64,000 nucleotides of DNA. It comes from a virus (taxonomy: Duplodnaviria > Heunggongvirae > Uroviricota > Caudoviricetes). Made by a program: the position numbers. Shown here piece by piece: positions 9,001-15,000 of this stretch. The stretch lies in the IMG/VR virus record IMGVR_UViG_2531839664_000027; one strand, written 5' to 3'. Position 1 is the stretch's first letter. Each line of letters begins with the position of its first letter.

Positions 9001-12000
9001 CCTTCTGCCAGATACAGTCAGATAAATTGAAGTAGAACTAACATCGCATGAGTAAAATGAACATCCCATCTTCTCAAGTTCTTCACTTATAGCTGCTAAC
9101 TTGGATGATAACTGATCCACTTCCTCAGTTTTCTTTTTACCGCCAAACGCAATAACTCTGGCGTCAAGTGCAAGCTGGTTCTGAACCGCCCCGGAAATCC
9201 TGGAGACTAAACTCCCTGAGAAAGAGGTAAACAGGATGACTAAAAATACTCGTTTTTCCCCCGAAGTCCGTCAGCGGGCGATTCGTATGGTTCTGGAAAG
9301 TCAGGATGAATATGACTCACAGTGGGCGGCAATTTGTTCCATTGCCCCAAAGATTGGCTGTACGCCGGAGACTCTGCGTGTCTGGGTTCGCCAGCATGAG
9401 CGGGATACCGGGGGCGGTGATGGTGGGCTCACCAGCGCTGAACGTCAGCGTCTGAAAGAGCTGGAACGTGAAAATCGTGAACTGCGCCGCAGTAACGATA
9501 TCCTTCGCCAGGCTTCCGCTTATTTTGCGAAGGCGGAGTTCGACCGCCTCTGGAAAAAATGATGCCACTGCTGGATAAGCTGCGTGAGCAGTACGGGGTC
9601 GGACCGGTATGCAGCGAACTGCATATTGCCCCGTCAACGTATTACCATTGTCAGCAACAGCGACATCATCCGGATAAACGCAGTGCCCGTGCGCAGCACG
9701 ATGACTGGCTGAAGAGAGAGATACAGCGCGTATACGATGAAAATCACCAGGTATACGGTGTGCGTAAAGTCTGGCGTCAGTTGTTACGGGAAGGTATCAG
9801 AGTGGCCAGATGCACTGTGGCACGTCTCATGGCAGTTATGGGACTTACCGGTGTTCTCCGGGGTAAAAAGGTCCGCACTACCGTCAGCCGGAAAGCCGTT
9901 GCCGCAGGCGACCGCGTAAACCGTCAGTTCGTGGCAGAACGTCCAGACCAGTTGTGGGTGGCTGATTTTACCTGGGTAAGCACATGGCAGGGCTTCGTTT
10001 ATGTGGCGTTCATCATTGATGTGTTCGCCGGATACATCGTGGGATGGCGGGTCTCATCATCCATGGAAACGGCATTCGTGCTGGATGCACTGGAGCAGGC
10101 GTTGTGGGCCCGTCGGCCGTCCGGCACAATCCACCACAGTGATAAAGGTTCTCAGTATGTATCGCTGGCCTACACGCAGCGGCTTAAGGAAGCCGGCTTA
10201 CTGGCATCAACAGGGAGTACTGGTGACTCGTATGACAACGCGATGGCGGAGAGCATCAATGGCCTTTACAAAGCGGAGGTAATACACCGTAAGCGCTGGA
10301 AAAACCGTGCAGAAGTGGAACTGGCCACACTAACGTGGGTGGACTGGTATAACAATCGACGATTGCTGGGAAGGCTGGGCCATACTCCTCCGGCAGAAGC
10401 AGAAAAAGCTTATTATGCTTCCATCGGAAACAATGATCTGGCAGCCTGAGTTCACAGATAAAACACTCTCCAGGAAACCCGGGGCGGTTCATTCTTTAAC
10501 TTTGTTACTTCTTCAAGTTCAGTGAACACCCCGGACTTAATTAAAGCGTTACGAGCGATTTCCTCTTTCATTCTCGTAGTTAAGCGGATTGATGACATAT
10601 TAATTCCTCTCAAATAAGTGGTTTGCTGCCTAATTTCATTTTCTGGCGACCAACACAAGTCACCCCCATTTCACTGCGTGGCTTGCGGTAGTAAATACGG
10701 TTCTGTTTACGCTCGACCTCTTCTGACTTTGACTTCTTGCAGCGAAGGCTTCCGAGTGATATTGCTTTTTCAGAAAGGCTTAAACGCTTTCTCGGGGTTT
10801 CCTGAACAGCTTCCTCACTGTCTGTGCCGAAGATCGAATCGATGATGTTGCAGATGGAATCACGCTCGATAGCCAGCTTTCTGCGCCGCTCATGACGGCG
10901 AGTTTTGGCATTTCCTGCAAATGTTGATTTGCCGTACACGATTACCGTCATGATATTTTCCTCATGTGAAATGGCTTTGGTGGTGATGCGCCAGATGCTG
11001 ATCTTCTGGTTGCTGTCGTTGCAGCAGCAATTCACATCACCGCCAAACCCATCTCGTTTGGTATCTGTTTGCGCTTTGTCAGCGCCCCATCGAAGTTAAA
11101 GAGCCTGCCAATCTTTTCCGTTTGGCTTCCAGCGTCCTGCTGATGTGGCAATAATGAACCAATAGTTCGATATTATCAAGAACTATTGGTACGAATTTTT
11201 GTGATTTATTAACTCTGCGAAGTATGATTTTGATATATAAGGAAATTTATTTTTGTAAATGTGGCTGATGAAGGTTATGCGGCAGGGATCAGAACTGCAT
11301 GGTTTAGCTAGTTACATCAATAAATACAAATGGTTATGTGTTTTTAGGTGGGCGAACGCGAGGCAAAGAAAACCCGGCTCGGTGGCCGGGTTGATGGGAT
11401 TATCGTTTATTTCTTTGATGTTTCTTTGCAGACTCAGCTTGAGTGTTTCCATACCTGCGTTTACCGCTATTGTTTTTTCCTCTAGGCTTGCCTTTTTTTC
11501 GATCTTCCCACCAGTCAGGTGCCGGGTCTGGCTCAACATGTAAAGCATCGGCAAGTCCTGATATCAAGCTGTATGACTGAACTCCATCAATGTGCTCTGA
11601 CAGTGATGGGGTAACATTCTGTCTTAGTGGATCAAGAATAAAATCAATACCTTTAATTCTGGCGTGTTTGGCGGCAGGCACAAAGTCTGAGTCCCCAGCA
11701 ACAAGGACAATTACATCAACAAGTTTTTCATAAGCTAAAGTCGTGATATCCATCCCTAGCTTGATATCAACTTGTTTTTGTTTGATGTCATAGTAAAAAT
11801 CATCATTTGTCAGTTCATCCCATTTTTTCGTTCCTTTCATCAGAGCATCAAGGGAGAATGTAGTTAGTTGCCATCGCTTATTATCAACAAGATTCCCTAA
11901 TCTTAAGGCTGTTTTTCGAGTTTTTCTTAACTCTTCATGCAGCTCCGTTCTCAGAATATATGATTTTTCGAGTTTGAAATTCTTGCGACCAGGCGTCTTA

Positions 12001-15000
12001 TTGCCAGGCTCAGGAAGTGGAAGGCGTGTTTGAATGTCGAGTGGTGGACAGTCATAGAAGTAAATTCTATAAAGCTCAAGCGGTTCCCTACGTTCTTGTG
12101 ATTGACGTTTTCCATTAAGATGGGAAAGAACCATTGACCATATTACTTTCATTATGCATTGCGCAGTCAGTTCATGCTCGGCGAAGTGTTTACGATGCGT
12201 AGCATGAACACGCTGCATGAAAAAACCCGCATCAATTAAAATTGCTGCTTTCTTCATAAGAGTCCCAAAAAAATAGCCCAGAGCCGTTATGCAGATATTA
12301 ACAATTGTCTGCGAACGGGGCTGGGCTTGGTTTAATTAATCTATGCCAAGTTGACTGTGCCGTCAACATAAAACTTACTTCCTATCACCCAAACGTCTCT
12401 TCACTCATCCGAAGAAGCAGCAATCCGGGTCAGCACGCACAAGCTCAAGCGCATCAGTCAGCGAAAGTTCAGTACTGTACTGATGCCATTTCATATCCTT
12501 CCGCATCCAATAGATTTTCCATCTATCCAGAGAACGTATGTACTTGATTCTTGCTGATGGCAGGATGTTTGTTTCACCTGGATTGCCCTGCCACACGGGG
12601 CGCTGTTCGCCGATATCTATCGTTTGGTCATTGATGCTATAAACAATATCCAGTTCATTGCGGATATGTTCAGGCGGCCTTATGCTTTCAATGAATTGGT
12701 GAACTTCTTTTTTGACCGCTTGATATTCAAGGTCAGTGAACGCCATCTATCCTCCTCACCCAAACGTTTCTTCTGGCCACTGGTTACCAGCTATGTGACG
12801 ATGAAGTCACGAACTTTTCAGCCACTCCCTTGCCTCGATGTCATCCAGATGGCGAGACTGCTTCAGAATACCAGCCACATACTCCACCTTTGCTACTTGA
12901 TGATAAGGTAACGTTATTGGCCTGTGGTCTTGGTTAATGCTTGTAAATTGGTATTCTCCGTCTCTGTCATAGCCAAGAACCTTGATCATGTTGTGCCCTT
13001 CAATGGTTCTGACAAACACCTCATCACCCGGGAATACTTTGGTGTTAGGCTCAATGAGTACATATTCTCCTGATTTTATTCTGGGCCACATGCTGTCTCC
13101 TTTCACACGAAGACCAAAGGCATCTGGATCATCGCTATAAATCTTGAGCCACCCATCGCGCTCTTCGGTCATCTCGATGGCACCATCAACACCAAGAATT
13201 GCCTCACCAACCACGCGCACTAACCCTTTTTTTAATTTGCCAACAAATGAAAGAGTATCTTCATCATTCGCCCCATTTAACGAAGTGCCGTGCTGAAGCC
13301 AAACAACATCAACATTTAGAAATTTCGCAAGCGCATTCATTTTTTCCTGACGCGGTAAAGACTCAGCATTAAACCATTTGCTAACGCCTTTGGACGAAAG
13401 AGAAAGGGCACGGGCTATGGCCATCCCCCTACCATGTTCATCAAGACCAGCTTCTTTACAGGCTTGCGCTAGCCGCTGGGCGAATTCTTTGCGCACTTTT
13501 TCATTCTGAACCATGAGTACGATACTAAAGCACTTGCAAAAACTTTCAGTTCAACCATAATACGTACTGAAAGTACGAAAAAGGATATTCCTATGCAAAA
13601 TCTTGATGAGCCGATTAAAGGTGTCGGCATCCCTGAAGTTGCGAAGGCTTGTGGAGTTAGCGAAAGGGCTGTCTATAAGTGGCTCAAAAACGGCTTCCTC
13701 CCTAAGACTGAGTTTTTTGGGAAAACTAAATACGCATCAAAAATCGAAGAGATTTCTGGTGGCAAATATCAAGCAAGCGAAATGCTTGAAATAAGCAAAA
13801 AGAACCTTCTGGCTGCATAAGTAACACCGCTCTTTATCAATCTGCACCGCCGACAACGCGGTAACTAATTAAGAACTCATCGAAAGATGAGTATTAGTGA
13901 TTATTTACCTATGGAAATAGTAAGAAATGGAACAAACAAGTTACAGCAAACTATCACAGCGCGACGTTGATCGCGCAGAAACAGATTTACTCATCAACCT
14001 GTCAACGCTTACCCAGCGCGGTCTGGCAAAGATGATTGGCTGTCATGAATCGAAGATAAGCAGAACGGACTGGAGGTTTATTGCTTCGGTCTTGTGTGCT
14101 TTCGGAATGGCATCAGACATCAGTCCGATTAGCAGGGCTTTTAAGTATGCGCTTGATGGACTCACCAATAAAAAACGCCCGGTGTGCAAGACCGAGCGTT
14201 CTGATCAAATACAAATGGAATTTTAACAACATCCAGCGAGGTAATTATATGCGAAACAAAGGCTTTAATCCACCTGATACACACAAAGAAGCTAAGCGTT
14301 TGCGCTTCCTTCGTTCCATTGATGAAAGAACTCAAATCTCTTTTGTGAAAGTTGCCAGAACTGAGCTTCTGAAGGCTGAGGCGAGGGCGTTGCTCCCGTC
14401 TCTACCAAAAGAGGAGGGATATACGTTCATTCCAAACGCATTTCTGGAAAAGCTGCTCAAAGAAGACATATCCGTAAGTCAGTTTAACGATGTTCTTAAG
14501 GTCTTTCGTCAAGGCAGGTAGTTATGAGCAATACAGCAAAAATCTACGATTTCAGCGCCGCACACGAGCGCAGGAGCAACAGGATGGAGAACCAGAAAAC
14601 TGGTTACATTCCGTTGTACCGGAGCATTCTGAAACAGTCATGGGCGAAAGATGTTTATCTTCGCACCCTGTGGGAAAACCTTCTCCTGAATGCCACCAGA
14701 AAGCCATACAAAGCGAATTTCAAAGGTCATGAATGGCATCTGCAACCCGGTCAACTGGTTGTGACAGCAGCTGATTTAGGTCTTCAGTTATGCGACAGGC
14801 ATGGCAAGCCAGCAAGCCGCGATCAGGTTGAGCGGATGCTTCAGGTTTTTGTGAAAGAGGGGATGATCACCATTGATGGAGAGAAGCAAAAAGGTCGTGT
14901 GATTACCATCACAAATTACCATGAATATGCTCAAAAAATGGACGATTCACCCGCACATGAAGCCGCACAAACGACCGCACATGATGCCGCACATGACGAA

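Follow-up and report, generated by a model that had tools for sequence, protein, structure and literature searches.

The window analysed here, a 64,000-nucleotide stretch of DNA from a virus of the class Caudoviricetes (IMG/VR record IMGVR_UViG_2531839664_000027), belongs to a lambdoid Stx2a phage. Between the genes for the cI repressor and the antiterminator N it carries the features listed in Table 1. This cI-N slot is occupied by rexAB in lambda and by Stk in 933W, and its contents therefore decide which other phages a lysogen tolerates, lysogens of Shiga-toxin phages included. A first-pass annotation of the same DNA had placed here, in a position equivalent to that of rexAB, a two-gene cassette on the cI strand, followed by a t-imm-like terminator ahead of OL/PL. 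The two anchors of the slot, both ORFs with their positions and strand, and the terminator hairpin were all recovered; window positions 11317-11393, which include the hairpin, have 92% identity to lambdoid phages and Escherichia coli prophages devoid of the NYN gene. The 147-nt spacer between the two genes, which had been overlooked, contains from 5′ to 3′ a sigma-70-like promoter, a 51-nt three-helix hairpin and a U7 run. Two accessory modules, independent of each other, lie one behind the other in the cargo slot from cI to PL, and the cI-N slot proves to be built from units that are shuffled independently.

Table 1. Features of the interval from cI to N (window coordinates).
Feature	Position	Strand	Evidence and remarks
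cI repressor (HTH and S24 peptidase)	12807-13514	minus	Pfam Peptidase_S24 3.8e-16, HTH_3 1.2e-5; upstream anchor of the cargo slot; the identical RM8352 prophage annotates a LexA-family regulator there
18-nt direct repeat, upstream copy	12756-12773		TCACCCAAACGTTTCTTC on the plus strand; brackets the DUF3024 unit
DUF3024 gene, 113 aa	12405-12746	minus	
18-nt direct repeat, downstream copy	12385-12402		Junction of the DUF3024 and NYN units
NYN-unit promoter, sigma-70-like	12338-12366	minus	TTGACG-17-TAGATT
Leader RNA	12267-12326	minus	Three-helix hairpin 12326-12276, then UAUUUUUUU 12275-12267
NYN-domain nuclease gene, 285 aa	11400-12257	minus	Predicted nuclease
t-imm-like terminator hairpin	11371-11392	minus	Part of the conserved PL/OL flank, not of the NYN unit
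PL-like promoter	11151-11179	minus	TTGATA-17-CATTAT, directed towards N
Antiterminator N	10610-10951	minus	Pfam N_peptide PF25694 6.7e-26; downstream anchor of the slot

The gene adjacent to cI is preceded by a strong Shine-Dalgarno sequence (GGAGG) and its product contains the RWKIYWMRKDMKWHQY stretch and four Trp in 113 residues, in agreement with the earlier description; the guess that it is a DUF3024 protein was borne out by a Pfam profile search (PF11225, E 2.4e-31). The protein folds as a small alpha+beta sandwich and is non-enzymatic. It also matches the PADLOC model PDC-S43 (PDLC05018, E 7.2e-42), residues 1-113 aligning on profile positions 1-115; PDC-S43 is a computational single-gene candidate with putative anti-phage activity and, in this data set, is tied to cI and not to defence islands. 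DUF3024 is not mentioned in the literature searched, where PDC-S43 was found only within a list. The previous statement that the pair is undescribed holds in that neither protein is a validated defence system, but for DUF3024 the novelty needs a caveat, since PADLOC already includes PDC-S43. The gap between cI and DUF3024 is only 60 nt; this distance, together with the strong Shine-Dalgarno sequence and the lack of a predicted terminator within the gap, indicates that the gene is probably a member of the PRM operon, and its product is therefore probably made in lysogens. Co-transcription with cI, which had been proposed for both genes, is doubtful for the nuclease gene, because a promoter-like site of its own, a stable hairpin and the U7 run precede it. 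DUF3024 is the small protein linked to the repressor; it may act by binding another protein, with a candidate role in exclusion or in the control of lysogeny.

The 285-aa protein belongs to the NYN family (PF01936, E 6.8e-9, 36.8 bits versus a cut-off of 24.2). Only residues 158-205 align to the Pfam model, since the strands of the NYN core are split by insertions of about 90 residues; the TIGR00288 score is far below its cut-off. The protein has a PIN-like alpha/beta/alpha fold and contains the motifs ILIDAGFF, DIKLGMDIT and VLVAGDSDF noticed previously, as well as the Lys/Arg-rich C-terminal tail, which is disordered and basic (about 15 Lys/Arg in 35 residues). The acidic residues of the putative metal-binding site, i.e. 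the Asp ending strand 1, the D..D pair and GDxD (D9, D164, D170, D189 and D191), do not vary among 34 homologues, nor do D69 and D224; thus the proposal of an NYN/PIN-type nuclease was sustained, with RNase activity as a prediction. The protein is part of no PADLOC system and gives only weak partial hits (HEC-09, 2e-4; NYN, 1.4e-3). Compared with other NYN-domain RNases (MARF1, Regnase-1/ZC3H12A, N4BP1, KHNYN, PRORP, Rae1/YacP and LabA/VPA0982), it represents a separate subfamily, found in bacteria and phages, whose proteins measure about 270 aa and end in a variable C-terminal tail, and whose genes have a leader RNA dedicated to them.

The DUF3024 and NYN genes are not partners, forming neither a cassette nor a toxin-partner pair, and this part of the earlier annotation has to be abandoned. 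The identical DUF3024 protein was found at 31 IMG/VR loci, after three cI types and with four different downstream cargos, i.e. a pair made of a 153-aa ORF and Stk, a 162-aa ORF, a 177-aa ORF, and NYN; once it is found without any cargo. Only 9 of 5426 complete E. coli genomes contain DUF3024 together with NYN, while an intact NYN gene plus leader is present in 74, of which 65 lack the pairing. In IMG/VR, NYN lies beside DUF3024 at 1 of 72 DUF3024 loci and at 2 of 75 NYN loci; among about 32 cI-adjacent NYN genes, DUF3024 intervenes in 2, and NYN directly follows cI in phage ev099, in 2B8 and in about 30 IMG/VR contigs. DUF3024 was never seen near NYN homologues of other genera, and the co-occurrence across genomes expected of an obligate two-gene operon was not found. 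Moreover, the two copies of the 18-nt direct repeat (family D3; 94% identity, 371 nt spacing) bracket DUF3024 as a separate unit; in ev099 the repeat sequence is located after the cI stop codon, directly before the NYN leader. In megablast searches, 933W-type phages match from window position 12380 onwards and ev099-type phages up to 12403, and the matches therefore overlap at the DUF3024/NYN junction.

A single two-gene system co-transcribed with cI, in which a nuclease effector would be joined to an antitoxin, sensor or regulator, could explain the adjacency of the genes, their common strand and the lysogen-expressed slot, and a diverged pairing is found at one further locus (L209), where the gene for an NYN protein with 74% identity to that of the window follows a DUF3024 gene. 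Nevertheless, this explanation is very improbable, given the exchange of cargos and cI types around an identical DUF3024 protein, the rarity of the pairing in E. coli and IMG/VR, its absence in other genera, the promoter and U7-run hairpin that separate the genes and the repeat that delimits DUF3024. A common sensor or adaptor role of DUF3024 for whichever effector lies downstream (Stk, a ParA-like ATPase, NYN or others), with the slot being modular, would account for the fact that some cargo gene nearly always follows DUF3024, and for the Erwinia block of DUF3024, 153-aa ORF, kinase and small ORF that is preserved intact at a site remote from any cI. It is improbable as well: the cargos share neither fold nor size and mostly belong to no family, DUF3024 occurs also alone (in Rahnella and at two further loci), its sequence shows no co-variation with the cargo, and in most genomes NYN and its leader are complete in the absence of DUF3024.

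The nuclease does have a conserved partner, namely the leader RNA. The hairpin has a folding energy of -25.9 kcal/mol (z -4.07), and none of 200 shuffled sequences was as stable; the leader is terminator-like by sequence and ends 10 nt ahead of the NYN start codon. A covariance model (R1) recognizes it with 76.2 bits (E 3e-16) on the sense strand only, the antisense strand scoring about 50 bits lower. In the MAFFT alignment 91% of the cells are paired and 11 of 17 base pairs have changed on both sides; with 34 distinct sequences the values are 93.6% and 13 of 17, and the covariation exceeds that of all 500 shuffles and of all slid controls, the U-run columns being invariant or nearly so. The element is kept from E. 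coli to Pseudomonas syringae, the proteins of which are only about 48% identical. It was detected before NYN homologues at 49 of 80 genome loci by the covariance model, plus 3 by eye, in Gamma-, Beta- and Alphaproteobacteria, Acidobacteria, Elusimicrobia, Bacteroidales, Verrucomicrobia and one actinobacterial genome assembled from a metagenome, and in 67 of 79 viral contigs, where it ends about 9 nt ahead of the ATG. No comparable match was found elsewhere in the approximately 1.3 Mb searched, Rfam 15 contains no matching family and no description was found in the literature; this hairpin-terminator leader RNA is apparently undescribed.

A promoter equivalent to that of the window (at least 9 of 12 matches) precedes 62% of 50 leaders, versus 0.9% of control windows, with its -10 element ending a median of 7 nt ahead of the start of the RNA model. 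In the window the -35 element lies inside the palindrome GTTGAC-N6-GTCAAC, which is perfect in 6 of the 50 leaders, compared to 1.8% of control TTGAC sites. The layout of promoter, hairpin, U-run and NYN gene is conserved in about 115 loci, transcription and termination being predicted. The hairpin with its U-run might be a mere terminator of the cI, or cI-DUF3024, operon, whose place before NYN would be incidental; indeed it would stop PRM transcripts, and in ev099 it comes directly after cI. However, this is hardly tenable, since the same element precedes NYN without cI in Pantoea, Pseudomonas, Halomonas, Burkholderia, Alphaproteobacteria, Acidobacteria and others, the promoter is found just upstream of the leader, and the sequences of the internal and apical loops are conserved beyond what a terminator needs.

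Taken together, we favour, with a probability of roughly 0.55, two independent modules, the second of which is a leader-controlled, potentially toxic NYN nuclease. The near-consensus promoter would start transcription about 4 nt ahead of the three-helix hairpin, which runs straight into the U-run; the NYN ORF follows, preceded by a weak ribosome-binding site. Whether begun at this promoter or at PRM upstream, most transcripts would stop at the hairpin, so that the cell would make much of a leader RNA of about 65 nt and little nuclease mRNA; the leader would restrain the potentially toxic RNase by attenuation and possibly also by binding the enzyme. This control may fail through phage-induced shut-off of transcription, RNA decay or loss of the element, and the freed nuclease would then cut RNA, stopping growth or phage development. 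A role of the NYN unit in defence or addiction is plausible.

The order of promoter, structured RNA, terminator and nuclease resembles the logic of an attenuator or of a type III toxin-antitoxin system, and ToxIN reportedly has the architecture of promoter, structured RNA, terminator and endoribonuclease gene. The type III loci (ToxIN, CptIN, TenpIN and AbiQ) have this same order, with a constitutive promoter, a structured ncRNA and an intrinsic terminator that restricts read-through, and, like the NYN unit, they reside on mobile elements; the ncRNA directly upstream, the intrinsic terminator and the single promoter of such loci are all predicted for the NYN unit. NYN and its leader might thus constitute an undescribed, widespread class of type III-like toxin-antitoxin or abortive-infection modules, in which a single structured hairpin RNA, overproduced owing to the terminator at its own end, would bind and silence the NYN endoribonuclease, and which would reside in prophage immunity regions, among them the rexAB slot of Stx and other lambdoid phages, and at prophage ends in many phyla. 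This specific version is unlikely. Type III antitoxin RNAs consist of tandem repeats, whereas the leader is a single hairpin (no tandem repeats were detected by TRF in 11300-12850), and type III toxins are ToxN, CptN or TenpN (AbiQ-like) proteins, while both Pfam and the fold identify the window protein as NYN, and it had no hit among the PADLOC Abi or Tox models.

Possible, although doubtful, is that NYN is an ordinary RNase of RNA processing or regulation whose synthesis is limited by the enzyme itself through the 5′ leader, and that phages carry this gene to adjust the RNA metabolism of host or phage, and not for toxicity or defence. RNase E and RNase III limit their own synthesis through the rne and rnc leaders, and the rne hp2, rnc and pnp leaders likewise comprise a stem-loop, conserved along with its internal loop, 5′ of a ribonuclease gene. 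A conserved leader beside an RNase gene is a classic sign of autoregulation, and such control of the enzyme's own mRNA through a 5′ hairpin would account for the conservation with no need of a toxin-antitoxin or defence role; the absence of NYN from PADLOC defence systems is also in line with it, as are the breadth of the family (7035 hits in many phyla) and its stable chromosomal positions in some clades. A Proteus homologue, which looks chromosomal, is flanked by glmS and an ABC transporter operon, and Rhodanobacter and Dyella copies often follow an alcohol-dehydrogenase-like gene and lack the hairpin plus U-run; a housekeeping RNase and a toxin fit such chromosomal-looking copies equally well. 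On the other hand, the E. coli gene is patchy and accessory (1.4% of the genomes, with copies at least 99% identical), and the gene recurs in prophage cargo slots, such as that between cI and N, and at the integrase end of prophages (Pseudomonas and Halomonas). Also, a near-consensus promoter with a strong terminator directly behind it is typical of toxin control, whereas in a simple autoregulated housekeeping gene it is unusual; the rne hp2, rnc and pnp leaders are not intrinsic terminators right after the transcription start, and their genes are housekeeping and not prophage cargo.

A nuclease gene tightly linked to a conserved structured RNA absent from Rfam 15 is a recurrent unit of the slot. 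The NYN family has thousands of members, with more than 500 occurrences in viral contigs, and characterizing one of them would therefore annotate many “hypothetical” prophage genes. If the leader is an RNA antitoxin, the type III toxin-antitoxin systems would gain a new toxin fold and a new RNA architecture free of repeats, and the NYN RNases that act in animal antiviral immunity would have a counterpart in bacteria; if it is only an autoregulatory attenuator, it would still be a new class of cis-regulatory RNA, with a clear candidate for its protein ligand.

Lambda rexA/rexB, 933W Stk and Salmonella BTP1 BstA, for which exclusion phenotypes are known, occupy the same position between cI and PL/N on the cI strand. 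No homology to RexA, RexB, Stk or BstA was found for the two window proteins, for which the Pfam scan returned only NYN and DUF3024 and PADLOC gave no Rex hit; unlike those systems, the NYN gene is preceded by a promoter of its own and by a terminator-like hairpin that would insulate it from PRM. The earlier expectation of defence-type cargo at this position is supported by related phages, in which the Stk kinase of the slot matches the PD-T4-6 models (E 1e-37). The NYN unit was also found next to a C4 immunity RNA, and a HicB-like gene is present among the cI-N slot cargos of other phages.

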